64,000 nucleotides of DNA from the NCBI GenBank assembly GCA_964441265.1, contig CAYYKJ010000005.1, forward strand, positions 29,867-93,866, read 5' to 3'. The notes beneath the pieces are model-generated. The model had not been told where the DNA came from and did no database searches. It was given only the letters and a program-made list of their open reading frames with translations. This document shows, piece by piece, positions 8,467 to 63,492 of the stretch (the stretch's first letter is position 1; each line of letters opens with the position of its first letter). This stretch comes from an uncultured archaeon. GTDB lineage: Archaea; Aenigmatarchaeota; Aenigmatarchaeia; QMZP01; QMZT01. Both the position numbers and the translations under genes were made by a program.

Positions 8467-8721
8467 TTACAGGCTCCTGGACATCGCGATATTCTCGCAG
8501 GACTTGACCTCGGGGATGGAATTCAGCTCCTCCTCCAGCTTGTCAAGCGTGCCTTCCTCGTCCGGAATGATCTTGGTGAATTTGAAGGCCTTCAGCCCGA
8601 AGGCCACCGGCTCCTCCTCCAGCTTGTCCGGCTTCTTCTCCTCCAGCTTCTTCCGGAGCGATTCGAACTGATCCATGTTCTCCGGTATTATCTTGTAAAC
8701 AAGAATGACGTCACCCATCAT
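8467..8721 (-). CDS. ef1b: translation elongation factor aEF-1 beta
   Basis: An 84-aa protein starting MGDVILVYKIIPE, with an acidic C-terminal half and typical archaeal EF-1beta size and sequence. It is adjacent to the Zn-ribbon partner gene. Confidence 0.85.
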   Translation of the reverse strand: MMGDVILVYKIIPENMDQFESLRKKLEEKKPDKLEEEPVAFGLKAFKFTKIIPDEEGTLDKLEEELNSIPEVKSCENIAMSRSL

Positions 8722-8735
8722 AACACTTCCTTACA

Positions 8736-8894
8736 TCAGGGCCCGATGAAGCCGCAGGAAGGGCATTTGTAAGTGTTGACCAGTTTCCTGCACTTCTGGC
8801 ACCTTATGATCTTCTCCTTTCCGCATTGCGGGCAGTCGAACTCGACCCAGTTCTCGCTGGATCCTATGTTCACGCCGCAGCTTGAGCATTTCAT
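8736..8894 (-). CDS. Zn-ribbon protein (COG2888-like; not in the ORF track because it is under 60 aa)
   Basis: My own translation is MKCSSCGVNIGSSENWVEFDCPQCGKEKIIRCQKCRKLVNTYKCPSCGFIGP. It has four CxxC pairs and lies immediately upstream of aEF-1beta, as in many archaea. Confidence 0.7.
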   Translation of the reverse strand: MKCSSCGVNIGSSENWVEFDCPQCGKEKIIRCQKCRKLVNTYKCPSCGFIGP

Positions 8895-43300: not shown

Positions 43301-46300
43301 GTGGGTTGCCGTAGTACATGGTCACGTTGAATATCGAATCTTCCGAGAGGTTGGCCTTGAACCATATCCTGGTTGAGGAGTCGTTGCACGCGGTTTGGTT
43401 GGACCACTCCAGCTCCTCGCCGTCCTGGAAGATCCTGAGGTCGGAGCAGCTGGCGTTGAGCTTCCCCTGGGAAACGAGGGTCTCGGTGTCTATGTCCGCG
43501 TAAACCGGGAACTGGTCTATCCCCTGCCCTCCGGTGTTGTTTATGCTCAGGTTCTCTCTGTATGCCCAGTTGTAGTCCCACCACCCCTCTGGATGGGAGT
43601 CACCTATCGAATATATGTCCACCATCCCGTTTATCAGGGTGCCGTTCATGTACATGTTGAAGGCGTGGTTCGCGAGGTCGGTTCCGTTGGTGAGATTTAT
43701 GTGTCCCCAGGCGGAGACGTATTCATGCTGGACCGTGGTCTCGTTTGGCTCCAGTGTTTCGGAAATTAGTATGCCGGGATAAACTAGGAGATTCGTTGAA
43801 TTTTTTCCTGATACCTCATCATCATTAACGGTCACCGTATATATTCCGTAATCTCCGGAGGAAATGTTCGGTGCCAGGAAGGATATGTTGTAGTATCCCG
43901 TTGCGTTGCTCATGTCTGATCCGTAAAACGTGTCGTTCAGGTAAAGGCTTATGTTCTCGTTTTCGATAGGCGAACCAGTTGAGGAATTGACGACCTGACC
44001 GTAAACGCTTATGTTTTTTCCCGAAAAGGTTTCATTCTCCGACAGCTCTTCTGAAATATTGATTTTCGTTTCAATGTCAGTTTCAGTGCTGTTGACCCAT
44101 GAAGACCATTCCGTCCCGTTGTATGCCCTGCAGCTGAACTTCCATGATTGCCAGCTGGTGATGTAAGAGCTGTCTACCATATCCAAAAAATTGCTCTGGT
44201 CGTTCGTCCAGAAGGAGCTGTATTCGCTGGAGTCCGTGGTCACGCTGGGATCGCTCACATTATGATTGCCCGTGTCGCCGTCCCCGATCTGGCCGTCGCC
44301 GCCATGTCCCCAGCACAAAACCCTGCCGTCGCTTTCGCGGATTCCGCATGTATGATAATAGCCGGCGGCAACGCTCGTGTATTCGCTCGAATCCGTGGTA
44401 ACGTTAGGATCTCCCGCCCCGTGGATGCTTGTGTTCCCATCGCCCAGGCGCCCGTATGTCCCGTTACCCCAGCACAAGACTCTGGAGTCATTGGCCCTTA
44501 TCCCGCATGTATGGTAGTTCCCCGCAGAAACGCCCAGGTATTCGCTGTCGTCCGTGGTCACGTTTGGATTGCCCACGCTGTGGTCGCCGACGACACCGTC
44601 CCCGAGTTGGCCGTGGTCACCGAACCCCCAGCACAAAACCCTGGAATCATTAGCACGAATACCGCAGGTATGTTGAAATCCGTTAGAGACGCTAATATAG
44701 GCGCTGTCGTCCGTTGTCAGGGTGAAATACGGTACGTTGTGCTGGTCAGTTCTTCCGTCCCCGATCTGTCCATTGTTCCCGCGTCCGCAACAGAGCACTC
44801 TGGAATCGTTGGCACGAACGCCACATGTATGCACTCCTCCCGCACTCACGCTCAGGTAAGCACTGTCATCCATGGTCAAGTTCGGGCTGCCCACGTCATG
44901 GATATCAACATTCCCGTCACCCAATCTCCCCCCGTATCCGTATCCCCAGCACAGCACCCTCGAATCGTTCGCCCTGATGCCGCATGTATGGGCATCCCCC
45001 GTCGAAATGCTGAGATATGCGCTCTCATCAGTGGTCAGGTTCGGATGTCCCACGCTGTGGGCGTTGGTGTCCCCGTCACCCAGCTGACCTTCGTTACCCA
45101 GACCCCAGCACAACACCCTGGAATCGTTGGCACGAACGCCACATGTATGCACTCCTCCCGCACTCACGCTCAGGTAAGCACTCGTATCCATGGTTACATT
45201 GGGAGAACCCGCCTCGTGGGCGTTGGTGTCCCCGTCCCCGAGTCTTCCCTGGTTGCCTAACCCCCAACACAAAACCCTGGAATCGTTCGCCCTTATGCCG
45301 CATGAATGTTCATCACCTGCGCTGATGCTCCCTTTCTTGAAGGCCGTCCCGTTCACCCACTCGACTGAATCATTATACCATTTGTATTCGAACTTCCGTA
45401 TCTCGGCGTCCTCGTCCCCGGTCGCATTGCAGTACCCTCTCAGGTTGTCGTTGGGGTTGGCCGTGTCGGGCTTTATGGTCACGTCGTTTATGGAGACGGA
45501 GAGGATATCGTATTCATCCCCGCCCTCGTCCTGGCTCTGGTTTGTGCCTTCTTCCACCGGCTGCATGGTTGTTATGTTGTTGACCGCATTCCAGGCGTCT
45601 ATCCTTGAGATGTTTGTCGTATAGGTCGAATTGACCTGATAGGGTACCGGTTTCCCGGTGGTCTTGAGCATATGCTCCACCTCTCCGGGCAGGAGGGGTT
45701 CGTTCTCCAGAAGCAGTGCCGAAACCCCCGAAACGAAGGGGACGCTCATGCTGGTCCCGCTCCTTTTCGAGTATTCCCCTCCCATGGTCCTTACCCGGAT
45801 GTCCTCCCCGGGGGCGAGGAGATCTGTCCAGTGATTCACGCTGGAGAAGGAGGCGATTTCGTCATCCTTGGTGGATGCCGCCACGCTTATCACCCCGGAG
45901 CCGCAGGCGGGAGACTTTATTTTCCGGGAGCCGTCGTTCCCGGTCGCCGCTATGACCAGAGTCCCATTGTCGACGAGCTGGTTGCAGTATTCAGCCACCG
46001 GGTTGGAGTCGCAGTAGCCGTCGTAGCTTCCGGAACCTATGGAGAGCGAGATTACATCCGCACCCTCCTGTTCGCAGTATTCCAGACCTTCAAGCACGTC
46101 GGATTCGTATCCTTTCCCGTCCCTGTCGATGACCTTGGCGACGACAAGGTCTATACCCGGTGCGACCGAATCCAGTATGCTGGCCACCTCAGTGCCGTGT
46201 CCCTGGTCGTCCCATGGGTCGTTGTCATCGTTCACGAAGTCGTGGCCTTGGGAGAAGGAATGGATATACATATAGTTGATTCCGGTGTCCAGGAAGCAGA

Positions 46301-46916
46301 CCTTCGTCCCGCTCCCGTTCAGTCCGAGACCATGCACGTCATCGGCGTTAATAAGTTCCATCGATCCGGATGTGAGCATGGAAACTGGCCTGTCGATATG
46401 GATGCTCTCTATATCCGGATTCTCCGCCAGCTCCAGGAGCCCCTCTTTCGAGACCTCCGCCGACAGGAATTTCCTGCCTTCAGCTTTCAGGTCGAAGTCC
46501 TCTTTCCGGGTATCTTTGGTTTCGAAGCTTTTCTCCCCCCTGAATTTGACTATCAGTCTGGTCTTCTCATTTTTGAGGACGGATTCCATGGCTTCTTTCC
46601 CGAGCATGGTGATGGACCTTATGCGGGATTCCACATTCATGGAGGGCAGGGTCTTTTGGATTGCTGTCGAGTTGGTTGAGTTCGGGGTGAGGTTTATGGA
46701 TTCATTGCCTGTCATATTGCCGGAAAGATTGAGAACACCGATTCCGGTCAGTTCTCCTGTTATGGAGGTGTTGTTAACGGCGATGTCGTATGCCATGACG
46801 GCTGCAGGTATGAGAAATATCATGAAAATTGCCAGTAACTGAGCCTGGCTTTTCTTCTTCTTGCCCAGACCCCCTTGAAAAACAGGCAATAAGTTTAACA
46901 GTATACTGTCCATCAA
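31386..46916 (-). CDS. giant (5176 aa) membrane-spanning multidomain surface protein: subtilase, RCC1 propeller, lectin/Ig-like repeats, TM and a cytoplasmic HerA/DUF87-like ATPase
   Basis: A single uninterrupted 15.5-kb ORF. The track start is TTG 46916 and the first ATG is 46913. TATATAAT lies 26-33 nt upstream. Domain motifs are listed under the sub-features. Confidence 0.85.
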   Translation of the reverse strand: MMDSILLNLLPVFQGGLGKKKKSQAQLLAIFMIFLIPAAVMAYDIAVNNTSITGELTGIGVLNLSGNMTGNESINLTPNSTNSTAIQKTLPSMNVESRIRSITMLGKEAMESVLKNEKTRLIVKFRGEKSFETKDTRKEDFDLKAEGRKFLSAEVSKEGLLELAENPDIESIHIDRPVSMLTSGSMELINADDVHGLGLNGSGTKVCFLDTGINYMYIHSFSQGHDFVNDDNDPWDDQGHGTEVASILDSVAPGIDLVVAKVIDRDGKGYESDVLEGLEYCEQEGADVISLSIGSGSYDGYCDSNPVAEYCNQLVDNGTLVIAATGNDGSRKIKSPACGSGVISVAASTKDDEIASFSSVNHWTDLLAPGEDIRVRTMGGEYSKRSGTSMSVPFVSGVSALLLENEPLLPGEVEHMLKTTGKPVPYQVNSTYTTNISRIDAWNAVNNITTMQPVEEGTNQSQDEGGDEYDILSVSINDVTIKPDTANPNDNLRGYCNATGDEDAEIRKFEYKWYNDSVEWVNGTAFKKGSISAGDEHSCGIRANDSRVLCWGLGNQGRLGDGDTNAHEAGSPNVTMDTSAYLSVSAGGVHTCGVRANDSRVLCWGLGNEGQLGDGDTNAHSVGHPNLTTDESAYLSISTGDAHTCGIRANDSRVLCWGYGYGGRLGDGNVDIHDVGSPNLTMDDSAYLSVSAGGVHTCGVRANDSRVLCCGRGNNGQIGDGRTDQHNVPYFTLTTDDSAYISVSNGFQHTCGIRANDSRVLCWGFGDHGQLGDGVVGDHSVGNPNVTTDDSEYLGVSAGNYHTCGIRANDSRVLCWGNGTYGRLGDGNTSIHGAGDPNVTTDSSEYTSVAAGYYHTCGIRESDGRVLCWGHGGDGQIGDGDTGNHNVSDPSVTTDSSEYSSFWTNDQSNFLDMVDSSYITSWQSWKFSCRAYNGTEWSSWVNSTETDIETKINISEELSENETFSGKNISVYGQVVNSSTGSPIENENISLYLNDTFYGSDMSNATGYYNISFLAPNISSGDYGIYTVTVNDDEVSGKNSTNLLVYPGILISETLEPNETTVQHEYVSAWGHINLTNGTDLANHAFNMYMNGTLINGMVDIYSIGDSHPEGWWDYNWAYRENLSINNTGGQGIDQFPVYADIDTETLVSQGKLNASCSDLRIFQDGEELEWSNQTACNDSSTRIWFKANLSEDSIFNVTMYYGNPLSGDPDYGEVCMKYEGDTCYVFYDDFSDNDCDGWKCIKDDYASDWGEGEDCTSNLDCSEGNMSLGGSNQNYKWVVSNFTENYNYVNITAELKYYDFYEVGPCVYKDNTTFLASTAQYWSGNYNRIRLYNYLSIASNETFNSDTFVWHNMTMLRNDTYAESYTDIDEAKVSNDSVSLPGGPYNASLWGESASDSLMDNYRISLFGAEPDVTETGNEDYVFETDADGDYNITFQAPSELGTYPILVNTTYTVEGHTTSEETVKDLEIVGVSFSGHKIDPDPPNIVQDVQINVTMTSDYGVNWTALEFHNGTHVMNYTGAQNASDEYYITIGQGNYTQSHQNMSYYWYANNSLGQTSHSSLQEFILKNYVPQYKDVSGDDNKGWGETWDFYINVSDQDQADNITVSVQENRTGSWSTMNSTTCWGCSGWNYLNVKSSWSRYAVGNQYWRLLIDDEYETNITPAYPVTVEKDDTGVSLTEGDGGEVNRSGSQKMTLTAFVNDTDRGFPVPDITCHFWITKDGSNYIHEGTNTTNSTGHCTLDFEPDNNYSTGVQNWKAGISGGAYYKDSNSSEGSLNIIGELNASLQEPSGQTYRAGSDSVLFRWNVTDDNSSMVSGVSNTIEVLPGGGSWEEITGSCSVNDEGGGWYNCTWDVPHDQTYGTYDVRVNTSKTYYNDGSDSFGGRFSVNTTDPVLSGPSSATEQDGGWGEWWNYSVDLNEVNPDTVNVSLWYDRGGGWELVNSMDVSCPCTDERVSFLHDPGWNIDDVGSRSYKFNASDYEGGKDDTGSQGADVRKDNVSIEYVAGNESEVNRSGTNSTDLKVRVFDTDRDAFLGSDVNVSLWVTTDGAGYNPDSSGVTDPEGYANFSFDPSGIYSVGRQEWIIGTEGDEYYDDENSSVYNVTVFGDLFGMVEYEEDHNVTDIVTLRGNVTDDEGEMVSGLGATFEVSLDGMSWEECTPVDDEGDGWYNCSWDSTGKDEGDWDVRMNYSGTYYNNGSVSEGDWFFLDNLEPYNSSPLLVDPPVDGWGYNFTYNTTVSDPENDSVTCTLWSNAGGGWVLKGRMTAQAPYICSLHADDYEWDYQGDYLFKFRLNDTFNEVNTTTENGTLEKDDIELEVTDCSNCHAPRDQYTLTLISYNITDLDRGGLITHQIECRLNVTRDFSNYDSFSNTTSPGYCRRYFNPGCNSTDGDGEYFLGQQDFMGEIPENSYYKTATITSQNVNIWGQIYHQIQIPDGEDYTEGENVPIRGRATDDCGNTIQTLDGKVFYYLENEADNVTQCTPVTNDGGGWYNCTWNSSGGKMGNYNITMNSTDHNLRYGGEYKKVDAFFLQTNDTSADLLIIPEENIVDGINRSSNRTFEIQVTLNNTGFSKLYNASINNHTMPENWTISPSIHDCGDILPGENCTENFTITVINGTTEGIYYVNLTGNWTQGNLVNKSAANQTMVNVTPNYKLEISESVVYGNASSGTTTTIGNFTLVAFGSGNLSDVEIECLSGACLNMPPDPVVYFFPDPVSSLPGGNTMKININATSQSDDKEEEGIVYILRANATGTACSPANECWETVTLNLSIVNDPPVLSNAQVTEQVDGWGAEYNYSVQVFDNNDDDINITLWVNPGGTWMRNETKVVSSGTMVNWTISPFSFSDTEETRNYLFEYNDLNSTGDKKHNLTNTTTFSGPYVQKDNVSIEYVAGNESEVNRSGTNSTDLKVRVFDTDRDAFLGSDVNVSLWVTTDGAGYNPDSSGVTDPEGYANFSFDPSGIYSVGRQEWIIGTEGDEYYDDENSSVYNVTVFGDLFGMVEYEEDHNVTDIVTLRGNVTDDEGEMVSGLGATFEVSLDGMSWEECTPVDDEGDGWYNCSWDSTGKDEGDWDVRMNYSGTYYNNGSVSEGDWFFLDNLEPGWSSLSVDPYQEGWGSTFTYNVSITDPENDNVTCELWSNASGIWVMKNSTTQQAPYTCSMEAKDYNGTDLYAGDDNETYNYRFRVNDSFNQMNTSEGTGKLEKDNITLVVTACDDCEAPRDGTKKTLIEYSINDTDRGTLAIYDIACYINVTLTGGGSPDSFSNTSSEGYCRRYFNPDCSYYVGHQDWYGKVSESKYYDYAEITSQLDVVGQFRHKIETPDGENYLEGENITIRGNTTDDCDNTVDGLGNVEFHLINENGINVSQCTPVNDEGSGWYNCTWDSWNQETGKYNITMNTTNLPSPPSTPVYYNGTYNKKDALVLEATQTFADLLLIPIYKETDNVTKYLNQTFNLTAVLNNTGEAYLYNATINRSYFPGWWNVTPVSHNCGMVETGNNCTRNFTVLVVNGTTSGIYYVGFKANWTNMIGTENSAVNETEVNVTENYDLEIREDEIAGGAFIGRTTTIGNFTIDADCSAELSDIRFTNKSGFCANPLDERKITLIPKNVSNLTGGTHIVIDINVTVPLGYPETTGPCTIQANATNSTCSPAGECWDELIINVTTVNEPPQLSDANVSNSTDGWGAEYNYSVFVYDHNGDDVNVTLWINNSGTWEKNETKLVGAGSTPYWTIRPFNSSDIGETMGFMFEYKDDYNNASNTSEFTGPSIERDDLLIEITGNSSTTLSRNAGEKALIEVMVTDSDRGIPLEGGRNCTFWSTRDGISYTTESENTTDSGGYCRYYLDSINCTYSVYYQYWEAGLGDSLYKEYNSSQGNFTVAGWITHNITRPAGDYHYESQSILFRGNATDECSDPATPADVSFFPESNGSEFSCSPANDEGNGWYNCSWDSTGMPAGWYDLKMNTTDSEYYNGNGTSTSNAFYLQNQTISPAFTTMPSHYWTNNVTANYSTTFNISLNLTNTGQGFLYSSSVNHTYFPPGWEIVPGLQGCGDVWAGENCTRSYSVTIPNGTQPANYTINFTAYWTNPDSSPGSATNSTHITVASPTMINITSPTSSDKAVDVLPGDRVQITANVTHRLSPVSDGVDFDIRLDEEDCALESSSYIGPFKLWYLECTAPNLTDAEYHNLTINTTNSFDGTVANDTETDAVYYKDTTPPYNVNVTSESVTEGGTVEVLAYLTDKEYVSNVSMNLTHPNGSVSVRWLQNQTPETNSTYWAVNLSGLSIGDHDYVLYARDKNGNLRNITWWFAVYPSDMVTINGTILDMEGQPVLSDFFMYRDNRSLSPDYLLNSFSTNSSGNYSRDVYRRVYDIEWKINSSMDAVGMFGINVTENMTDPVGFDDIALKYISIPLTRVILKAFAVNSTMNFSRANISMNFTGTGYEHNFIDVIRVYQCRDWDWTENGCNSTWINRGGSVDVDTETVTATVDNFSAFVAAEEVVCGNEICENVYGESSDNCPEDCWAPGPGDEEETPGGGYTGGVSAGAVCGNDRCETGENYQNCPEDCPKEEEPYAIDTDVIDIELLPGESRLYPITIENRQEDASDVDMEVTGTIWEFTQLQSRSFSIDEQSAKTVKVKFFAPMSAPPGVYNGELLVTVDDTPNTIPVTLRIVTEKEALMDVKVEVLTKILGQNGTVRYRLSLFNLGYKKKFDVHLTHNIRDVNTNKLLAYKEEEMALETTLSMVKNFPLDEINIYPGKFYIEVVASYENKTASSADIFEVVEPFWTMDKIYMLIAAIAIAVALIVGWKGSRWYSKWKLRRRRYLFPVDYKKLPKGPIYMGKIAETGTKAWLDPDDLTTHILSAGATGAGKSVSAMVTVEECLKLKIPVVVFDPTGQWTGFVKRCTDRKMLDRYDEFGMKETDAMPFKGMIFEVTDPKVKIKFKEFMNPSEITVFMLNKLKPGEFDQAVQNIVQTIFETDWEESPKLRLLVIFDEVHRLLEKYGGSGGYVALERGCREFRKWGIGMIMLSQVLADFKEAIKGNVLTEFQLHTKGLGDIDRVKKKYGEEYSNRITKQEVGVGMVQNPKYNRGRPYFVAFRPLLHSPHKIPEEELEKYKKFAKELKEMEREIRSLEKKKVDTTDIKLELKLAKDKLKTGAFRMTEIYLDSLRGSLKKHSRKKGKKKKKRGKKK
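31700..32480 (-). other. cytoplasmic P-loop ATPase domain (HerA/DUF87-like) of the giant protein
   Basis: It has the Walker A motif GATGAGKS (32346-32369), the Walker B motif LLVIFDEVHRLL (around 31975-31990) and RKWGIGMIMLSQ. It lies C-terminal to the TM helix. Confidence 0.75.
32538..32590 (-). other. single transmembrane helix separating the extracellular and cytoplasmic parts of the giant protein
   Basis: YMLIAAIAIAVALIVGW is followed by KGSRWYSKWKLRRRR, which follows the positive-inside rule. Confidence 0.65.
37633..38280 (-). repeat. copy A of a 648-bp apparently identical intragenic duplication
   Basis: It matches 40285..40932 at an offset of exactly 2652 nt. Antisense ORF translations from the track are identical, and both boundaries were checked base by base. 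Confidence 0.85.
40285..40932 (-). repeat. copy B of a 648-bp apparently identical intragenic duplication
   Basis: See copy A. It encodes KDNVSIEYVAGNESEVNRSG...GDWFFLDNLEP (216 aa), which appears twice in the protein. Confidence 0.85.
43260..43570 (-). other. DUF2341/concanavalin-like lectin module of the giant protein
   Basis: It contains YRENLSINNTGGQGIDQFPVYADIDTETLVSQGKLNASCSDLRIFQDGEELEWS...IWFKANL...MYYGNP. Confidence 0.5.
44210..45330 (-). other. seven RCC1-like propeller repeats of the giant protein
   Basis: There are seven ~51-aa repeats of H(T/S)CG(I/V)RANDSRVLCWG.G..G(Q/R)(L/I)GDG. Confidence 0.8.
45590..46400 (-). other. subtilisin-like (S8) serine protease domain of the giant protein
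   Basis: The catalytic triad motifs are in subtilase order and spacing: D210 in CFLDTG (46287-46289), H240 in GHGTEVAS (46197-46199) and S389 in SGTSMSVP (45750-45752). Confidence 0.85.
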
Positions 46917-54384: not shown

Positions 54385-54411
54385 AATCTTGTATCGCATT
54401 GCAGAGATAGT
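54385..54411 (+). repeat. direct repeat, copy 1, upstream of the DGR target gene
   Basis: AATCTTGTATCGCATTGCAGAGATAGT compared with 55412-55441 AATCTTGTCTCTGCTCATTGCAGAGATAGT. Confidence 0.6.
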
Positions 54412-54480
54412 CACTTCAGGAAAACGGGGCAATGAAACCGATGCATAACATATATTGACCACCCGAGAGTAATCAAAACA

Positions 54481-54511: not shown

Positions 54512-55393
54512 ATGACAACAAAGACAGCAGAGAAAATCAGTATGCCAAGCTTCAGGTACAGGGGATTTGACGTCCCTGCTTTAGACCTTTCCACATCGCT
54601 GATTGATGATTTGAAAACTTCAGAGCCCGCATACAAGCTTGCCCCGAAATCCGCTCCGCTTTCATGGAAAGTCGGCCTCTACATGGTCGGCAGGGACCTG
54701 GAAATAGGGTCCGAAGAAGCCGAAGCGCTTCCAGGGCCAGTGAAGGAAGCCGGGAGGATGGTTTATTCCGATTGCCAGGAAAGGAAAGCCGAAGGTACTT
54801 GGCACAAGGACGGAGTCCTGTTCCTCCCAAAGAGCGAGAAGCCGAAGGGCATGTGGCCGATGCCGGATGGCTATGCCTTGGCAAAATACTCAATGGGCAT
54901 CGCTGGTTTCACTGAAAAGGACGGTGTATGGCAACCTGATCCAGAGCATGACACGATAGAGGAATATATGTGGCTGCCACCCGGAGATGGAAGATTCGTT
55001 GCGCCTCCTGATAGCGGTGAGGGTGCATATCACCCATTGGGTCCTCCGAGATTTACGGTCGGGGACAGGAAGGAAGCTGTCAAGAGATGGGTCAATGCGG
55101 GACTTACTGAGCAGCAGGCGGGCAAGGAGCTTTCAATATTCTACAGGGCGGATTCAGGCACGCGTGCCGTTATCTCGTGGTCTGACGGCGACGACGGCCC
55201 GTTGTGCGTTAACCTCTACGGCGAGCCCCGGGGCAGGGGCTCGAGTATCGGCTCGTTCGCCGCGAGTAGGTCTGCCGAGCGGAGCGAGGCTCCGAAGAAT
55301 TCGGGCTACAGGCTGCTCACATCAGACGAATTCAGGTCATTCGAGAACGACAGGAAAGCGCTTGAAACCATCAGGAAGGCCGTCAACAAATAA
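54512..55393 (+). CDS. DGR variable (target) protein, no signal peptide evident
   Basis: A 293-aa ORF whose C-terminal region (ISWSDGDDGPLCVNLYGEPRGRGSSIGSFAASRS) is encoded by the VR. Confidence 0.8.
   Translation: MTTKTAEKISMPSFRYRGFDVPALDLSTSLIDDLKTSEPAYKLAPKSAPLSWKVGLYMVGRDLEIGSEEAEALPGPVKEAGRMVYSDCQERKAEGTWHKDGVLFLPKSEKPKGMWPMPDGYALAKYSMGIAGFTEKDGVWQPDPEHDTIEEYMWLPPGDGRFVAPPDSGEGAYHPLGPPRFTVGDRKEAVKRWVNAGLTEQQAGKELSIFYRADSGTRAVISWSDGDDGPLCVNLYGEPRGRGSSIGSFAASRSAERSEAPKNSGYRLLTSDEFRSFENDRKALETIRKAVNK
55161..55269 (+). repeat. DGR variable repeat (VR)
   Basis: It aligns to TR 55644-55815 with 14 substitutions, all opposite TR adenines, and two gaps of 30 and 33 nt. Confidence 0.85.
55280..55294 (+). 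promoter_or_regulatory. GC-rich hairpin 11 nt downstream of the VR (candidate DGR target-recognition element)
   Basis: CGGAGC-GAG-GCTCCG forms a 6-bp stem with a 3-nt loop. Confidence 0.45.
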
Positions 55394-55411
55394 ATTTCTT
55401 CTTTCTATATT

Positions 55412-55441
55412 AATCTTGTCTCTGCTCATTGCAGAGATAGT
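55412..55441 (+). repeat. direct repeat, copy 2, downstream of the DGR target gene
   Basis: See 54385-54411. It starts 19 nt after the target gene's stop codon. Confidence 0.6.
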
Positions 55442-55643
55442 TGTCCCGGACAGCTGTGCATCGGTGCAGGCACTGTCCAAGGACTTGCCTGGAGCATGCT
55501 TGAACTACATGCCCGGCTGTAGCGCGTGAGAAGAGATCCGATCCGTAATTGCTCGCGCCGTGAAATTCAGCAGCGATAGCCGAAAAATGCGTTAAAGCTG
55601 CGGTGCGGCCCAATGGGGCCATTGGGCAGCCGGGCTACATAAG

Positions 55644-55815
55644 CGCGTGCCGTTAACTCGTGGTCTGACGACAACAACGGCCCGTTGTGCGTTAATGTCG
55701 GAAGAGCATCTTCCAGCAGCGCAAACCTCAACAACGAGCCCCGGAACAGGAAAGACGGCAAGCGAACGCTTGTCTTTGCCCTGAACTCGAATATCGGCTC
55801 GTTCGCCGCGAATAG
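55644..55815 (+). repeat. DGR template repeat (TR)
   Basis: It is the A-rich counterpart of the VR, with AAC/AAT codons in the VR reading frame. It contains two extra segments, about 55696-55725 and 55754-55786. Confidence 0.85.
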
Positions 55816-55858
55816 TTCGGGTTGTCCGGGACCAATACTGATAACAGGACGGTCAGGC

Positions 55859-56386
55859 ATGTCTTACGGTTTGATTTTCCAGAAAACGTACGATCTTGTC
55901 AAATGGGTCTATCCGACCGTCAACAGGTTTCCAAGGAAGCAGCGGCTAATACTGTCGCAGAGGATAGAAGTGACCACTATCAGGATTCTTGAACTCGTTA
56001 TCGACATAAGCCGGCGGGACACCGAAACGACCAGGAGAAAAATACTCCACGAACTTCGCAAGCTCCAGATCCTGCTCAGGTTGTCAAAGGACCTCTCATA
56101 CCTAAGCTTCAGGAAATACGAGCACGCAAGCTCATTGCTGGACGAGATCTCGCGCATTCTTGATAATCGGGGGGGGGGGGGCACCGCATGGATTGCGGAA
56201 ATTTATACGATGAGCTGTGCTCTTTCAGGAATCTTGAGCTTGCCTTCAGGAAAGCCAGGAAAAACAAAAGATGCAGGAAAGACGTGCAGGACTTTGAGTT
56301 CAATCTGGAGAAGAATCTGCTGCGACTCAAGAGCGAGCTTGAGTCCCTTTCTTACAGACCAAAGCCTCTCAAGCAATTTGTTATAA
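55859..56386 (+). CDS. avd: Avd (accessory variability determinant, four-helix bundle); the 3' end is uncertain because of the G13 tract at 56169-56181
   Basis: MSYGLIFQKTYDLVKWVYPTVNRFPRKQRLILSQRIE...LRLSKDLSYLSFRKYEHASSLLDEISRIL is typical of Avd over about 105 aa. After the G-run, the frame as given continues 66 codons into the RT gene. Confidence 0.65.
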   Translation: MSYGLIFQKTYDLVKWVYPTVNRFPRKQRLILSQRIEVTTIRILELVIDISRRDTETTRRKILHELRKLQILLRLSKDLSYLSFRKYEHASSLLDEISRILDNRGGGGTAWIAEIYTMSCALSGILSLPSGKPGKTKDAGKTCRTLSSIWRRICCDSRASLSPFLTDQSLSSNLL

Positions 56387-57264
56387 GGGATCCGAAGACC
56401 AGGCTTATATCAGCATCACATTTCAGGGACAGGGTTGTCCACCACGCCCTGTGCAACATAATACAGCCGATATTCGAAAGGTCGTTCATCCACGATTCGT
56501 ATGCTAACAGGATAAACAAGGGAAGCGGCAGGGCCATCGAAAGGTTCGACTCATTCAAGAGAAAAGCGTCAAGAAATGGGAAATTGCTGAACAGAGCGAA
56601 AGACGGAAACATGGTCATGGGATATGTACTCAAAGCCGACATAAGGCACTTCTTCGATACTGTTGATCATAAAGTCCTTATGAATGTCATAGGAAAGAAG
56701 ATAAAAGACGATAGGGTCCTTGCGCTTGTCGGAAGGATCCTTTGTAACCACGTGACGAAGCAGCAGGGCAAGGGAATGCCCATCGGAAACCTCACAAGCC
56801 AGTTCTTCGCTAACCTCTACCTCGACTGCCTTGATCATTTCGTAAAGCACGATCTTGGAGCCAGATTTTATGTGAGATATGTCGATGATTTCGTGATACT
56901 TCATCAGTCAAGGGAGAGGCTTCAGGAATGGAAGACAACGATATCGGAATTCCTGCGGACTGTCAAACTAAAGCTTCACCCAGAGAAATCGAAAATATAC
57001 CCCATTCATAAGGGAACAGCCTTTCTTGGATACAGGCACTTCTATCACTTCAGGCTGATCAGGAAAAGCAATCTCAGGACGCTGGAGAGCAGAATGGAAA
57101 AGCTCATGGATCTTTACCTAAAAGGCGTGATCGAGTATGAAAAGGTCATTGAAAGCTATGAAGGATGGTCGGCCTACGCGAAACAGGCGAACAGCTATAA
57201 TCTTAGAAGAAGGGTTATCGCAAAATTGAATTCGGATATCAAGCTTAATAAGTGCATTTATTAA
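56188..57264 (+). CDS. DGR-type reverse transcriptase
   Basis: It has RDRVVHHAL, LKADIRHFFD, the DGR-signature MPIGNLTSQFFANLYL and the catalytic YVDDFVIL motif. Confidence 0.92.
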   Translation: MDCGNLYDELCSFRNLELAFRKARKNKRCRKDVQDFEFNLEKNLLRLKSELESLSYRPKPLKQFVIRDPKTRLISASHFRDRVVHHALCNIIQPIFERSFIHDSYANRINKGSGRAIERFDSFKRKASRNGKLLNRAKDGNMVMGYVLKADIRHFFDTVDHKVLMNVIGKKIKDDRVLALVGRILCNHVTKQQGKGMPIGNLTSQFFANLYLDCLDHFVKHDLGARFYVRYVDDFVILHQSRERLQEWKTTISEFLRTVKLKLHPEKSKIYPIHKGTAFLGYRHFYHFRLIRKSNLRTLESRMEKLMDLYLKGVIEYEKVIESYEGWSAYAKQANSYNLRRRVIAKLNSDIKLNKCIY

Positions 57265-57300
57265 ATAGATGCATTGCTAATAACATTCCAAGGTGGGTTA

Positions 57301-57948
57301 ATGATCAATTCTGTCGTATTCGACATGGACGGTGTCCTTCTGGACAGCATCCCCCAGCACAGGGAGGCCTTTGAGGAGGTCTTCAGGGAGAACGGTATTG
57401 AGATATCCAAAGAGGATTTCGTGGAGGTCAGCGGGATGACCACCCCCGACATCATAAGGAACATCGCCAAAAAGCACGGGAAGGAAGTGGACGTAGAGAG
57501 GATGTCGGAGGAGAAGGACAGGAAGGCCATCGAGAAGATATCGGACGACATGAAGATTTTTGACGGGGTCCATGACGTTATCGAGAACCTGAAGAAGAGC
57601 GGATTCAGGATAGGCTTCGCCTCTTCCAGCGACAGGTCCGTGATAGACCATTTCATGGAGAAGAGCGGCCTCGGGGGCATGTTCGATTCCGTCGTAGCTG
57701 GAATAGATCTCCACAGGTCAAAGCCCGACCCGGAGGTTTTTCTGGTTGCCGCCGAAAGGATGGGTTCGGAGCCGGAGGAGTGCGCCGTGGTGGAGGACGC
57801 GAGGAACGGGATAATAGCCGCCAGAAGGGCGGGAATGGTCTGCATAGGGGTGAGGAGTGAATACATCAGGCCGGAGGACCTGGAGAAGGCCGATATCGTG
57901 GTGGATTCCATAAAGGAGATAACCCCCGAATTTCTCGGAAAGCTTTAA
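57301..57948 (+). CDS. HAD hydrolase, beta-phosphoglucomutase-like (paralog 1)
   Basis: It contains VVFDMDGVLLDS...SSS...KPDPEVF...VEDARNGIIAARRAGM. The start was moved to ATG 57301. Confidence 0.8.
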   Translation: MINSVVFDMDGVLLDSIPQHREAFEEVFRENGIEISKEDFVEVSGMTTPDIIRNIAKKHGKEVDVERMSEEKDRKAIEKISDDMKIFDGVHDVIENLKKSGFRIGFASSSDRSVIDHFMEKSGLGGMFDSVVAGIDLHRSKPDPEVFLVAAERMGSEPEECAVVEDARNGIIAARRAGMVCIGVRSEYIRPEDLEKADIVVDSIKEITPEFLGKL

Positions 57949-58000
57949 ATAGGCGGACTCATTGTTAATTGTTTCATCTATCGTGTTGAGAAGTGGTTGT

Positions 58001-58657
58001 ATGATAAATACGGTAATATTCGACATGGACGGGGTGCTCATCGACAGCGTTCCCCATCATTACGAGGTCTTCAGGGACTTCATGAAGGAACACGGGGTGG
58101 AGATAGACATGGACGATTTCAGGGAATTCAACGGGACCACCACCAAGGAAGTGATAGAATATCTGTCCCGGAAGCACGCGAAGGACCTGGACGTCCACGA
58201 ACTCTCCGCAGAGAAGGAGAGGAGGACCTGGAAGAGGATCGCGGAAGAGGCGGATATTTTCGACGGCGTTCACAGCCTGATAGAGGTGCTGAAATACAGC
58301 GGGTTCAGGGTCGCCCTGGCCACCTCGACCGAGAGGGAGCACGCAGAACACTTCTTCAGGATGAGCGGCCTGAAGGACAGGTTCGATTCCATAGTCACAA
58401 AGGATGACGTCCACAGGTCAAAGCCCGACCCGGAGATATTCAGTCTCGCCGCCAAAAGGGCGGGGTCGAGGCCGGAGGAATGCGTGGTCATAGAGGACTC
58501 CAAGAACGGGATTTTGGCCGCCCGCAGGGCCGGCATGAAGTGCATAGGGATAAAGAGCGATTTCGCCAAGGGCGAGCATCTGGAGATGGCCGACCTGCTG
58601 GTGGATTCCATGAAGGATATAACCCTCGATAAAATCAGGCGCATGAGGGATTCATAA
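58001..58657 (+). CDS. HAD hydrolase, beta-phosphoglucomutase-like (paralog 2)
   Basis: It contains VIFDMDGVLIDS...KPDPEIF...IEDSKNGILAARRAGM. The start was moved to ATG 58001. Confidence 0.8.
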   Translation: MINTVIFDMDGVLIDSVPHHYEVFRDFMKEHGVEIDMDDFREFNGTTTKEVIEYLSRKHAKDLDVHELSAEKERRTWKRIAEEADIFDGVHSLIEVLKYSGFRVALATSTEREHAEHFFRMSGLKDRFDSIVTKDDVHRSKPDPEIFSLAAKRAGSRPEECVVIEDSKNGILAARRAGMKCIGIKSDFAKGEHLEMADLLVDSMKDITLDKIRRMRDS

Positions 58658-58967: not shown

Positions 58968-59600
58968 ATGCATATGCGTACGGGCGCGATCAGGGCGATA
59001 ATATTCGACCTGGGAGGGGTTATCGCCTGCGAGGACTGGGATTCCTACGGGGAGACCGTCTGGAAGAATCTCGCTGAATTCCTCGGGATGGAAGAGAAAG
59101 AAGTCGGAAAAATTTTCCATAAGTATTACAGGGACGTCGGTCTGGAATCGGGAAAGGGGAGCGAGACCGAATACTTCTCTGAGCTCGCCGGTGCGTCACC
59201 CGAAAACCTCTCGGAGAACGACGTGAGGGATTACTATCTTTCGCTTTTCTACGCACATGGGGAGGTTCTGGAGCTGGTCAGGAAGCTCTCCGGATCGTAT
59301 CCCCTTTACATGATCTCCAATGACGTTGCCTCCTGGTTCGACTTCAAGGTCAGGAAATTCGGCCTGCGCCCCCTTTTCAAGGGACTGTTCTGCTCCGGGC
59401 ACATAGGCTACGTTAAGCCTGATCCCAGGATATATGAATATGCCCTTTCAAAGATACCGGAGAATCCGGGTGAATGCGTGTTCATAGACAATCTGGAGAG
59501 AAACCTCCATCCCGCGGAAAGGCTGGGGGTTAAGACCATACTTTTCAGATCCGCCGGTCAGCTCAGGGAAGACCTGGGGAAGATGGGGATAAAAATCTGA
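58968..59600 (+). CDS. HAD-superfamily hydrolase (third copy, divergent)
   Basis: It contains IIFDLGGVIA...ISND...KPDPRIY...FIDNLERN. Confidence 0.75.
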   Translation: MHMRTGAIRAIIFDLGGVIACEDWDSYGETVWKNLAEFLGMEEKEVGKIFHKYYRDVGLESGKGSETEYFSELAGASPENLSENDVRDYYLSLFYAHGEVLELVRKLSGSYPLYMISNDVASWFDFKVRKFGLRPLFKGLFCSGHIGYVKPDPRIYEYALSKIPENPGECVFIDNLERNLHPAERLGVKTILFRSAGQLREDLGKMGIKI

Positions 59601-59690: not shown

Positions 59691-60962
59691 ATGGATTACG
59701 TTGATCTCAAGTACAAACCGAGCAGGGACGAGATAATCGCAGAGTTCCGCATGGAGCCGGAGGGAATCACCTTCAGGAAGGCCTGCAATGAGGTGGCCGC
59801 GGAGTCCTCAATAGGGACCTGGACCAAGGTTTCCACCATGAGTCCCTCGATAGCAAAGAAGCTGAAGCCGCACGTTTTCAATATTGATGAGAAGGAGAAG
59901 ACTTTCAAGGTTGCCTATCCGGTGGGGCTTTTCGAGCACGGGAGCATTCCCCAGCTGATGAGCTCCATCGGAGGGAACATATTCGGAATGAAGATCCTTA
60001 AGTCGCTGAGACTGGAGGACATACAATTCCCGGAGAATTACGTCCGGGGCTTCAGGGGCCCCGCTTTCGGGATAGAAGGTGTCAGGAAACGCCTGAGGAT
60101 ATGGGGACGTCCCCTCCTGGGCACCATAATAAAGCCGAAGGTGGGCCTGACACCCAGGCAGATGGCGGGGATAGCTCATGATGTCGCTGTCGGGGGTCTG
60201 GATTTCGTGAAGGATGACGAGAACCTCACCTCCATGAAATATTGCAGGTTCGAGAACCGCGTCCCCCTGATACTGGAGGCCTTGGACAAGGCAGAGGAGG
60301 AGACCGGCAGGAGGATCGGATATTCCCCCAACATAACTGGTCCCGTCGATGTGATGGAAGAGAGGGCATATTACGCCAAGAAGCACGGTAGCAGGTACGT
60401 GATGGTAGACGTGCTGACCACGGGCTGGTCAGGACTCCAGTATATGAGAAATCTGGACCTCGGCATGATAATACATGCCCACCGGGCCGGGCACGCCGCC
60501 TTCACGAGGAACCCGGAGCACGGAATCTCCATGCTCACGATAGCCAAGCTGTGCAGGCTCATAGGCGTGGACCAGATACACGTGGGGACTGCCCACGTGG
60601 GGAAGATGTCCGGGACGGCAGACGAGACATGCGAGATAGAAGACGAGATTGAGAGCAAGTTCATCACGGAGAAGGGCGGGGAGCACATACTCGAGCAGTT
60701 CTGGTACAAGATAAAGCCCACCCTGGCTGTCGCTTCGGGGGGACTCCATCCGGGAATGATACCCAAGCTCCTGGAGAGAATGGGATCCAACATAGTGATG
60801 CAGTTCGGGGGAGGATGCCACGGCCATCCCAAAGGACCGAAGAAGGGAGCGATGGCGATCCGTCAGGCGATGGAGGCGGCGAGGGATGATATCCCGCTCC
60901 CGGAGAAGGCCAGAGAAAACAAAGAGCTGAAACAGGCGATTGAGAAATGGGGTCCGGCCTGA
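59691..60962 (+). CDS. rbcL: ribulose-1,5-bisphosphate carboxylase large subunit, form III-like
   Basis: It has GTIIKPKVGL, GGLDFVKDDENL with the carbamylated lysine motif, HAHRAGHAAF and GGGCHGHP. No small-subunit gene is nearby. Confidence 0.9.
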   Translation: MDYVDLKYKPSRDEIIAEFRMEPEGITFRKACNEVAAESSIGTWTKVSTMSPSIAKKLKPHVFNIDEKEKTFKVAYPVGLFEHGSIPQLMSSIGGNIFGMKILKSLRLEDIQFPENYVRGFRGPAFGIEGVRKRLRIWGRPLLGTIIKPKVGLTPRQMAGIAHDVAVGGLDFVKDDENLTSMKYCRFENRVPLILEALDKAEEETGRRIGYSPNITGPVDVMEERAYYAKKHGSRYVMVDVLTTGWSGLQYMRNLDLGMIIHAHRAGHAAFTRNPEHGISMLTIAKLCRLIGVDQIHVGTAHVGKMSGTADETCEIEDEIESKFITEKGGEHILEQFWYKIKPTLAVASGGLHPGMIPKLLERMGSNIVMQFGGGCHGHPKGPKKGAMAIRQAMEAARDDIPLPEKARENKELKQAIEKWGPA

Positions 60963-61950: not shown

Positions 61951-63492
61951 ATGAAGCTCAAGGTAAGACTGCTCCCGCTGGACGCCGAGAAGCCCATAGT
62001 GGTTCTGAACAAGGATGATGCCGAGGAGATAGACGTGAGGCCGCTGGAGAGGGTCAGGATAAAGCACAACAAGCATACCTTCGTCGCCATTGTGAACACG
62101 ACCAAGAGGATGGTGGGCCAGGGGGAGATCGGGCTATATGAGGACATAATAGAGGACAACAGGATAAGGAGTTCCCAGACCGTCGAAGTCGAGGCGGCCG
62201 AGGCGCCCAGCTCCCTGTCTTTCATAAGGAAGAAGATAGAGGGCATGGTCCTCTCCAAAAAGGAGATCGAGAGCATAATAAAGGACACGGTTGAAAACAA
62301 CCTTTCCGACATCGAGATTGCCTCCTTCGTGACATCTCTCTACAACCACGGGATGACCATGAACGAGACTGCGAATCTCTCCATGGCCATGACCAAGACG
62401 GGAGACGTGCTGAAGCTCGGGAAGAAGGAGGTATACGACAAGCACAGCATAGGGGGCGTCCCGGGGGACAAGACCTCCATACTCACGGTTCCGGTGGTGG
62501 CCGCCGGGGGGCTCACCATACCCAAGACATCCTCCCGCGCGATAACCTCGCCCGCGGGCACGGCGGACAGGTTCGAGTGCATAGCCCCGGTGGAACTGGA
62601 CCTCGGGGAGATAAAGCGGGTCGTTAAGAAGACCAACGGCTGCCTGGTCTGGGGCGGTGCGGTCGACCTCGCCCCCGCCGATGACATGTTCATAAAGATA
62701 GAGTATCCCCTCTCCATAGACCCCTTCCTTCTGCCCTCCGTGATGTCCAAGAAGAGGGCCGTGGGCGCCAAATACCTGGTGGTGGACATACCCACCGGGG
62801 ACGAGGCCAAGATAAACACGAGCGAGGACTTCGAGAACCTCGCGGACAAGTTCGTCACCCTCGGAAAAAAGCTGGGCATAAAGGCCAACGCGATCTCCAC
62901 CTATGCCGACCAGCCGGTGGGTTACGGGATAGGACCTGCTCTGGAGGCCAGGGAGGCCCTGGCGACCATAAAGAAGGGACATGGTCCCCCGGACCTGGTG
63001 GACAAGGTGGCCACCCTCGCAGGGGTGCTGTTCTCCTTCTCCGGAGCGAAGGACGGGAAGTCACATGCGATGAGATTGCTCAGGTCGGGTAAGGCCTACA
63101 GGAAGCTCCGGGAGATAATAGAGGCCCAGGGAGGGGATCCGGGGATCGAGCCCTCCGACATTTCGGTGGGAAAAAGGAAGGCGTCCTTCCTCTCCAAGAA
63201 GAGCGGTAAGGTGCTCTGGATACACAACAAGGCGGTCGATGTCGTTGCCAGGGCGGCCGGCGCCCCCAAATACAAAGAAGCGGGCGTGTTGCTCAGGAAG
63301 AAGATCGGCGACAGGGTGAGGAAGGGGGAGAAGCTCTTCGAGATATACGCCAGGAACACCTCCAAGCTGAACAGTGCCCTGAAGATTTCGGAGAAGATGG
63401 AGCTGATGCGGGTGGGTAAGAAATCCACAGTCGCCCTGGAGAAATTCCCGAGCGGCGGGGAAGCGGAGAGGACGTTCATACTGGAGAGATGA
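61951..63492 (+). CDS. deoA: AMP phosphorylase (archaeal thymidine-phosphorylase family with N-terminal extension)
   Basis: A 513-aa protein with the N-terminal MKLKVRLLPLDAEKPIVVLNKDDAEEIDV extension, HSIGGVPGDKTS and TSSRAITSPAGTAD motifs. Confidence 0.85.
   Translation: MKLKVRLLPLDAEKPIVVLNKDDAEEIDVRPLERVRIKHNKHTFVAIVNTTKRMVGQGEIGLYEDIIEDNRIRSSQTVEVEAAEAPSSLSFIRKKIEGMVLSKKEIESIIKDTVENNLSDIEIASFVTSLYNHGMTMNETANLSMAMTKTGDVLKLGKKEVYDKHSIGGVPGDKTSILTVPVVAAGGLTIPKTSSRAITSPAGTADRFECIAPVELDLGEIKRVVKKTNGCLVWGGAVDLAPADDMFIKIEYPLSIDPFLLPSVMSKKRAVGAKYLVVDIPTGDEAKINTSEDFENLADKFVTLGKKLGIKANAISTYADQPVGYGIGPALEAREALATIKKGHGPPDLVDKVATLAGVLFSFSGAKDGKSHAMRLLRSGKAYRKLREIIEAQGGDPGIEPSDISVGKRKASFLSKKSGKVLWIHNKAVDVVARAAGAPKYKEAGVLLRKKIGDRVRKGEKLFEIYARNTSKLNSALKISEKMELMRVGKKSTVALEKFPSGGEAERTFILER

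Follow-up and report, generated by a model that had tools for sequence, protein, structure and literature searches.

We report that the template repeat (TR) of an archaeal diversity-generating retroelement (DGR), located at positions 54512 to 57264 of the window (the whole 64-kb stretch of DNA analysed), is interrupted by two structured blocks that never reach its variable repeat (VR). We consider that these blocks are archaeal bulge-helix-bulge (BHB) introns, which the splicing endonuclease and ligase of the host would remove before mutagenic reverse transcription, and we put the probability of this reading at roughly 65%. With a little less assurance, we also lean towards a broader proposal, in which a clade of DGRs in Aenigmatarchaeota keeps one to three BHB introns in the TR, mutagenic retrohoming would depend on the tRNA-splicing endonuclease and ligase of the host, and every VR would be a natural record of intron loss and hence of information passed on through a processed RNA.

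The locus is a genuine and apparently functional DGR on a chromosome of the DPANN phylum Candidatus Aenigmatarchaeota, and the identity that a sequence-only reading of this DNA had assigned to it was confirmed for the TR/VR pair, the accessory protein Avd and the reverse transcriptase (RT) alike. The components lie on the + strand in the order target gene, TR, avd and RT. The target gene (54512-55393) encodes a protein of 293 aa; the VR (55161-55269, 109 nt) lies in its C-terminal part, ahead of a conserved segment, SAERSEAPKN, and a terminal helix. As encoded in the DNA, the TR spans 55644-55815 (172 nt), and our alignment reproduced the boundaries previously given for both repeats. In the avd reading frame (55859-56386; 55685-56386 in the list of open reading frames), the Avd domain corresponds to the first ~105 codons (55859 to ~56168) and scores 62 bits against Pfam bAvd (cut-off 40; 8.7e-17) and 79.2 bits against NCBIfam DivGenRetAVD (2.5e-22), marginally under the cut-off of 80. 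The RT gene (56188-57264, 358 aa) matches RVT_1 (1.1e-21), and the IGNLTSQ and YVDD motifs previously noted in it are present. More than 6000 homologues of this RT were found at E<1e-60; the closest adjoin Avd genes and TR/VR pairs, and the closest named ones belong to Aenigmatarchaeota. The best named homologues, of CysRS (66-76% identity) as well as of the RT (57-63%), come from this phylum, which bears out the earlier guess of a DPANN host. An exact-protein look-up of the RT returned no record, and no further VR or TR was found within the 64-kb window, in which one of each is visible.

When the TR and VR were aligned with tolerance for substitutions at TR adenines, the gaps could be placed without any non-A mismatch, and all 13 substitutions fell at TR adenines (A>T at 55656 and 55730; A>G at 55671, 55673, 55676, 55733, 55734, 55745, 55746, 55751, 55752, 55791 and 55812). 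The chance that 13 random mismatches would all lie on adenines is about 4e-10. The strict adenine specificity claimed for this pair therefore survives the gapped alignment, as do 13 of the 14 substitutions then listed; the remaining one, 55753 A>C, is an artefact of gap placement, because A55753 sits in a TR-only block and C55240 of the VR matches C55786. What the sequence-only reading took for an ordinary colinear pair is in fact a TR that exceeds the VR by 63 nt, a surplus it did not mention. The surplus consists of block 1 (55695-55724, 30 nt) and block 2 (55753-55785, 33 nt). As encoded, the two repeats thus differ in length; joining 55694 to 55725 and 55752 to 55786 yields a sequence of 109 nt that is colinear with the VR, with exon 1 (55644-55694), exon 2 (55725-55752) and exon 3 (55786-55815) corresponding to 51, 28 and 30 nt of the VR. 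In this colinear TR, 26 of the 109 nt are adenines, all at codon positions 1 or 2, and the codons that contain them are AAC, AAT and GAC only. AAC and AAT had been named before; AAA, named with them, had been read across a gap. Both junctions split AAC codons.

How widespread are such blocks? We fetched related loci (numbered with the prefix L) via the RT and via the target protein. In the same RT clade, TR-only blocks, one to three per locus, are present in another fifteen loci (14 of them independent, L139 having the same DGR as L011); with the window, this makes 16 loci. The RTs of this block-bearing clade are 57-68% identical to that of the window, and every locus whose RT is at least about 57% identical to it has one to three blocks. 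Against 30+33 nt in the window, the block lengths are 30+33 nt in L147, 36 in L001, 45+21 in L002, 27 in L003, 30 in L004, 30+18 in L011 (and L139), 26+13 in L012, 30 in L140, 23 in L141, 27 in L142, 32 in L143, 30+30+51 in L144, 30 in L145, 24 in L146 and 17+58+27 in L148, an archaeon GW2011_AR5-type contig. A length of exactly 30 nt is shared by ten of the 25 blocks (eight without L147, which matches the window). Outside this clade, the more distant archaeal relatives L005, L006 and L013 have colinear TR/VR pairs, L010 (Micrarchaeota) has a TR-only gap of just 3 nt, and the bacterial relatives L007 to L009 are colinear save for a single 1-nt gap in L007.

The differences that flank every block, on both sides, stay adenine-specific. 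In L144, a single TR with three blocks serves two target genes (1102-1209 and 1939-2040), whose VRs carry different A-substitutions, and all three blocks are absent from both. Extra residues at the block sites were found in none of the 29 aligned target homologues, in whose alignment the VR columns are hypervariable; the window and L147 likewise differ at A-templated VR sites. Because the blocks are absent from the VRs, from both VRs of L144 and from the target homologues, the information that reaches the VR reproducibly arrives without them.

The blocks share a single architecture. The last six exon nucleotides comprise a 4-nt segment, C, and two further nucleotides; the block then consists of one nucleotide, a variable hairpin of unrelated sequence, a 4-nt segment, C′, complementary to C, and two final nucleotides. 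Across the 23 constructs described below, the 5′ bulge is 3 nt long, N-A↓A (the arrow marks the junction), and each junction lies 2 nt beyond a strand of the central helix. In block 1, GCGU (55689-55692) pairs with GCGC (55719-55722), with U-A↓A as the 5′ bulge and UGUCGGAAGA/UCUUCCAGCA as the inner hairpin, and the 3′ side reads A-A↓A; the minimum free energy (MFE) fold consists of a 4-bp helix, a 3-nt bulge and a stacked hairpin. Homologues of block 1 occur with compensatory changes in L011, L140 and L147, for example GCUU/AAGC in L140. In block 2, CAGG (55747-55750) pairs with CCUG (55780-55783), with A-A↓A as the 5′ bulge and GGCAAGC/GCUUGUC as the inner hairpin; here the MFE fold has a 3-nt 3′ bulge (A-A↓C) and then, displaced by 2 nt, a short exon-exon helix. 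The core CAGG-AAA...CCUG-A(A/U/C)N, enclosing unrelated inner hairpins of 0-44 nt, is found in 14 related loci.

As for the register, in 17 of the 20 tabulated blocks the VR permits a cut 2 nt 3′ of the 4-nt exon segment, this segment pairs at 3-4 of 4 positions with the 4 nt sited 2 nt before the block end, and the inner hairpin stacks directly; alternative registers pass the same test in 16 of 320 cases. Site 2 of L141 fits as well, save for one non-A mismatch distant from the junction, and the blocks of L147 and L148 have the same register when their sequences are read by eye. Unconstrained MFE folds of each block with 20-nt flanks mostly take the form of 4 bp, 3 unpaired nucleotides and a hairpin, with 3-4 of the 4 central pairs formed in 19 of the 25 folds, and several blocks at site 2 fold with a 3-nt 3′ bulge and then a short exon-exon helix.

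We then compared 23 constructs of equal length, each made up of the exon end, five nucleotides from either end of the inner part, C′ and the flank; because they were built in the register under test, they favour that register somewhat. Standard pairs occupied 91.3% of the pair cells, against 52.5% after shuffling (none of 500 shuffles reached the observed value) and 23-41% with slid partners, and all nine pairs change on both sides. Because the slid and shuffled controls score far lower, we argue that the covariation signal is real. Owing to their shared ancestry, related blocks do not count as independent, whereas about eight classes of helix do, namely CAGG/CCUG, GCGU/GCGC, GCUU/AAGC, CUUC/GAGG, ACGU/GCGG, ACGA/UCGG, GCGA/UCGC and CGGU/GCCG. 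In L147, the closest relative, both blocks show only structure-preserving changes. Both blocks of the window, and 21 of 23 related constructs, have the central helix together with the 5′ bulge and a stacked inner helix.

Which process leaves such a trace? The archaeal splicing endonuclease (EndA) acts on two 3-nt bulges that lie on opposite strands, 4 bp apart, and cuts 2 nt into each; EndA and the RNA ligase RtcB are regarded as universal in Archaea. In the VRs, the 5′ strand of the central helix is kept together with two nucleotides, and the 3′ strand is lost together with two nucleotides. Because this stagger matches the cut geometry of the endonuclease, we read it as the probable trace of BHB splicing, and the structure of the blocks supports a probable place in the class of BHB introns. 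The same definition of the substrate is summarised in a previous study (PMC5829648), according to which DPANN endonucleases cut relaxed BHB motifs (HBh′ and hBH) and BHB introns occur not in tRNA alone but also in rRNA and a few mRNAs.

Because the window contains no tRNA genes that could serve as an internal BHB control, we used those of the Aenigmatarchaeota contig L005. Two intron-bearing tRNA genes (8500-8603, − strand, and 8731-8872, + strand), both missed by ARAGORN, have introns of 29-30 nt at non-canonical positions, in the same register and with the same relaxed architecture as the TR blocks. One gene contains an intron of about 29 nt in its D loop and another of about 41 nt in its anticodon loop; the other gene contains a 30-nt intron at position 27/28. 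Excising the D-loop and 27/28 introns by the same rule restores the D arm and the anticodon arm of the cloverleaf. In these two introns, all four central pairs form, the stacked inner helix is 9-10 bp long and there is no outer helix.

On this basis, the following pathway may be proposed. A precursor RNA would span roughly 55440-55835; it would begin with a 5′ arm, continue through an RNA domain upstream of the TR (the RT-16 motif described below) and the TR itself, and end in a 3′ arm that folds back onto the first. The host EndA would cut 2 nt past each strand of the 4-bp central helices, at 55694/55695, 55724/55725, 55752/55753 and 55785/55786, and the host RtcB would ligate the three exons, yielding a template that is 109 nt long and colinear with the VR. 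The complex of Avd and RT would then copy this spliced template, misreading its adenines, and the cDNA would replace the VR.

Alternatively, the blocks might stay in the TR RNA, and during cDNA synthesis the DGR RT, on reaching the A-rich 3′ bulge, might make a programmed jump over the short helix to the A-rich bulge on the 5′ side. In favour of this, every block forms a hairpin, a GAA microhomology is present at most site-2 junctions, and misincorporation by the DGR RT at the invariant adenines of three bulge positions could favour realignment of the primer. Wu et al. (2018) found TRs and VRs of unequal length in about 7% of DGRs, with multiples of 3 bp commoner (14 of 25), and ascribed these indels, which lie next to AAC repeats, to slippage of the RT (PMC5758913). 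Structured blocks of defined register, or splicing, were not proposed there, which sets the present blocks apart. We nevertheless regard a template jump as unlikely. The bypass of a simple hairpin would delete both strands of the helix, whereas here the 5′ strand and two nucleotides are kept. The 4-bp helix and the 3-nt bulge stay constant whatever the length of the inner hairpin (0-44 nt), and the block at site 2 of L012, with 13 nt and almost no hairpin, would be no obstacle to an RT. Moreover, junctions without microhomology exist at site 2 of L002, site 2 of L144 (against both of its VRs) and site 1 of L012. At these junctions the BHB stagger is required, because only keeping two nucleotides of the 5′ bulge and removing two of the 3′ bulge avoids non-A mismatches. 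The geometry also matches that of the tRNA introns on the related contig, and the bacterial relatives fetched, L007 to L009, have no such blocks.

Several observations weigh against splicing by the host endonuclease. First, we infer from DNA alone both that the blocks are removed at the RNA level and that the splicing enzymes of the host remove them. Second, in the MFE fold of block 1 the 3′ cut site lies in an 8-nt loop, not in a 3-nt bulge, which corresponds to the relaxed HBh′ form, and the outer exon-exon helix stacked on the central helix amounts to only 0-2 bp in every tabulated block except site 2 of L012. Third, columns 8, 9 and 24 of the construct alignment (A2) are adenine in 23 of 23 constructs, across about eight unrelated central helices. 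These are the nucleotides before and after the 5′ junction and the second-to-last nucleotide of the block (55694, 55695 and 55723, and 55752, 55753 and 55784, in the window); an endonuclease blind to sequence does not explain their invariance, which could point to the DGR machinery itself. Fourth, site 2 of L011 needs one non-A mismatch under the rule, and site 2 of L143 is one nucleotide off, with 32 nt missing from the VR where the rule predicts 33. Finally, 13 of 15 independent loci have a total extra TR length divisible by 3 (63, 36, 66, 27, 30, 48, 39, 30, 27, 111, 30, 24 and 102 nt; the other two have 23 and 32), including loci whose individual blocks are not (26+13; 17+58+27), and splicing alone does not predict this. 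Translation of the TR was considered as a reason for these lengths and rejected: in L003 and L012 stops interrupt the frame equivalent to that of the VR, and the TR and avd do not consistently share a frame.

Some of these points would suit another form of RNA processing, involving neither EndA nor the RT, such as a DGR-specific nuclease and ligase or a self-cleavage directed by the N-A↓A and A-N↓N junctions, which are conserved. The invariant junction adenines are no known requirement of EndA, and the relaxed 3′ sites make poor canonical substrates. We find such processing improbable, since the cassette has no extra conserved companion gene in the loci examined, the blocks, of 13-58 nt and with unrelated inner sequences, are too small and variable for a ribozyme, and RT-16 is the sole Rfam family that matches the region. 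Lastly, a relic, either a dead DGR with TR insertions or VR losses by ordinary mutation or one whose true block-free TR lies elsewhere in the genome (only one VR and one TR are visible in the 64 kb, and the rest of the genome is outside our view), is very improbable, given that the same pattern with A-only flanking substitutions occurs in 15 independent loci, that both VRs of L144 lack the same three blocks and no target homologue keeps one, that the blocks keep a covarying structure, unlike decaying sequence, and that each locus would need a hidden second TR of its own.

If the blocks are indeed BHB introns, what purpose might they serve? We can only speculate that they may break the DNA homology between TR and VR, lowering recombination between these direct repeats, or that they may gate the activity of the DGR by tying it to RNA processing. 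They may instead be tolerated passengers inside mutable AAC codons.

To our knowledge, DGRs are the only natural system of targeted protein hypermutation in prokaryotes, and the DGR template has so far been regarded as a simple copy of the VR. The present element resembles the DGRs of which that of Bordetella phage BPP-1 is the prototype, and those of DPANN archaea and the candidate phyla radiation, in its C-terminal VR, its TR adenines at codon positions 1 and 2, its A-to-N substitutions only, its Avd, its DGR-type RT and the GC hairpin that follows the VR. It differs from known DGRs in the one to three structured TR blocks of its clade, in the order target-TR-avd-RT, in the RT-16 motif 5′ of the TR, in a long-range closing helix around both, and in the run of 9-13 G that joins avd and RT, which are fused in some relatives. 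With archaeal BHB introns of tRNA, rRNA and a few mRNAs such as cbf5, the blocks have in common the 4-bp central helix, the 3-nt 5′ bulge (joined in several blocks by a 3-nt 3′ bulge), the predicted cuts 2 nt past each helix strand, the variable hairpin and the small size (13-58 nt); with DPANN tRNA introns at non-canonical positions they share the relaxed HBh′ form. Unlike such introns, they would have a retroelement template as their host RNA, their junction adenines are invariant, their 3′ site often lies in a loop, and their splicing is proposed from genomic sequence only.

A further comparison is with the Bordetella DGR itself, into the TR of which Guo et al. (Mol Cell 2008) reportedly engineered a self-splicing group I intron; this intron is said to have been lost on transfer to the VR, proving an RNA intermediate. 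There, as here, the VR lacks an interruption that the TR carries. The Bordetella intron was artificial and spliced itself, whereas the interruptions described here are natural, conserved within a clade and of the type that proteins splice in Archaea, so the archaeal loci look like a natural version of the Bordetella experiment. In the literature searched, no paper treats DGRs together with bulge-helix-bulge motifs; queries combining DGRs, archaea, introns and splicing gave general reviews only. The DGR itself is thus of a known kind, and the intron-like TR blocks are a new feature for which we found no earlier description. If our reading is correct, an intron-bearing template would tie a retroelement to the archaeal tRNA-splicing machinery and would add a class of substrate to it. 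It would also give a reason why such elements may be overlooked or misreported by standard DGR finders, which presuppose colinear repeats. For engineering, it would mean that interruptions of the TR are tolerated if they can be removed at the RNA level.

Two features of the presumed template RNA surround the TR. Upstream, the Rfam RT-16 RNA motif (RF03019) matches 55465-55643 on the + strand, ending one base before the TR, with a cmscan score of 50.4 bits against a gathering score of 50. It occurs in the same place, at 52-74 bits, in eight of the ten related loci scanned (L002-L006, L010, L012 and L013), abutting the start of the TR in every archaeal locus where it was detected; in the other two of the ten, L001 and L011, it fell below the gathering score. 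Weinberg et al. (2017) described RT-16 beside RT genes, gave it no function, and speculated that additional RT motifs function in DGRs (PMC5737381). As published, the motif adjoins the RT gene; here it abuts the TR.

The second feature is a closing helix, seen in both the MFE and the centroid folds of 55425-55850. Its 5′ arm (55443-55455) and its 3′ arm (55820-55832), which begins 4 nt after the end of the TR, form an uninterrupted duplex of 13 bp that encloses RT-16 and the TR. The arms covary between the window (GUCCCGGAC/GUCCGGGAC) and L147 (GUCCCAGAC/GUCUGGGAC) through compensatory G>A and C>T changes, and L144, L013 and L148 have different yet complementary arms at equivalent positions. 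The length of the ungapped duplex is not significant for any single locus, since shuffled sequences reach 13-16 bp, and the duplex-energy search over-extends duplexes; the case for the helix is therefore one of position and covariation rather than of energy. Its layout resembles that of archaeal processing stems, and no BHB was seen in the stem. Just upstream of the 5′ arm, at 55414-55441, lies a motif, AATCTTGT(A/C)TC..GC(TC)ATTGCAGAGATAGT, that is also present at 54386-54412, about 100 nt upstream of the target gene. The copy at 55414-55441 is preceded by a TATA-like TTTCTATATTAA, and the repeated motif may be a shared promoter or start-site element.

The junction between avd and RT deserves separate attention. 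The element had been described as complete and intact; at this junction we consider that description uncertain because a tract of 13 G (56169-56181, + strand) separates avd and RT frames that are out of phase. The avd frame is free of stops up to the start of the RT and continues out of frame over the RT gene. One extra G, or a −1 shift in the tract, would fuse Avd to the RT (…ILDNRGGGGHRMDCGNLY…). Relatives have natural Avd-RT fusion proteins of this kind (P0014, P0015, P0020, P0028, P0033 and P0093), with GGG(G) linkers. Runs of 9-13 G are found at this junction in ten loci of the clade (the window, L002, L003, L004, L011, L140-L143 and L146), with the RT in phase −1 relative to avd in three, +1 in four and in frame, i.e. 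fused, in three. The tract could permit control of expression by slippage, or phase variation; it could equally be a Shine-Dalgarno-like element or a homopolymer error of the assembly. If it is prone to slippage, it may set the amount of Avd-RT fusion that is made.

The target protein matches no Pfam or NCBIfam family. Among its 37 homologues, the hypervariable columns lie exactly over the VR. A C-type-lectin fold had been anticipated for it. The AlphaFold2 model has a pLDDT of 90, yet a search of the PDB for similar folds gave no significant match (E 0.56 for the DGR variable protein TaqVP), so this expectation is weakly supported. Among viral proteins, phage tail-collar fibre proteins match best (E 0.017-0.1 over about 165 residues), and a lectin-like variable domain is possible. 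A scan of viral contigs with the target protein found no relative; a scan with the pattern AACAGGAAA-N(6-36)-CCTGAAC gave at least 120 matches, and this pattern seemed too unspecific.

The GC-rich hairpin reported to follow the VR by 11 nt is present at 55280-55294 (CGGAGC-GAG-GCTCCG, + strand, as read from the sequence). It is a candidate for the stem-loop of the DGR target site; it falls in conserved coding sequence, its role is uncertain, and in L147 its stem has one mismatch. The segment directly after the VR (55270-55330; columns about 345-360 of the target alignment A1; SAERSEAPKNSG) is among the better conserved stretches of the target family at the protein level. Because it overlaps the hairpin, its nucleotide conservation may reflect a target-site signal of the DGR besides coding.

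Beyond the retroelement, the window is chromosomal in character and encodes TyrRS/TrpRS-type and Cys tRNA synthetases, CDC48, the large subunit of RuBisCO and a glycosyl transferase family 3/nucleoside phosphorylase-type protein. Directly 3′ of the RT gene lie three tandem paralogous reading frames (57274-57948, 57962-58657 and 58968-59600; repeat family D5, 75% identity) with a DMDGV(L/I)(L/I)DS motif typical of HAD-family phosphatases. The genes for RuBisCO and for the phosphorylase-type protein adjoin each other (59691-60962 and 61951-63492) and, judging from their Pfam domains, probably form the archaeal AMP-salvage pair of AMP phosphorylase and form III RuBisCO. On the − strand, an open reading frame of 5176 aa (31386-46916) contains internal repeats, with six tandem units of 159 nt at 44302-45308 and repeats of about 2.65 kb at 35027-40584, and seems to encode a giant surface protein of a sort often met in DPANN genomes.

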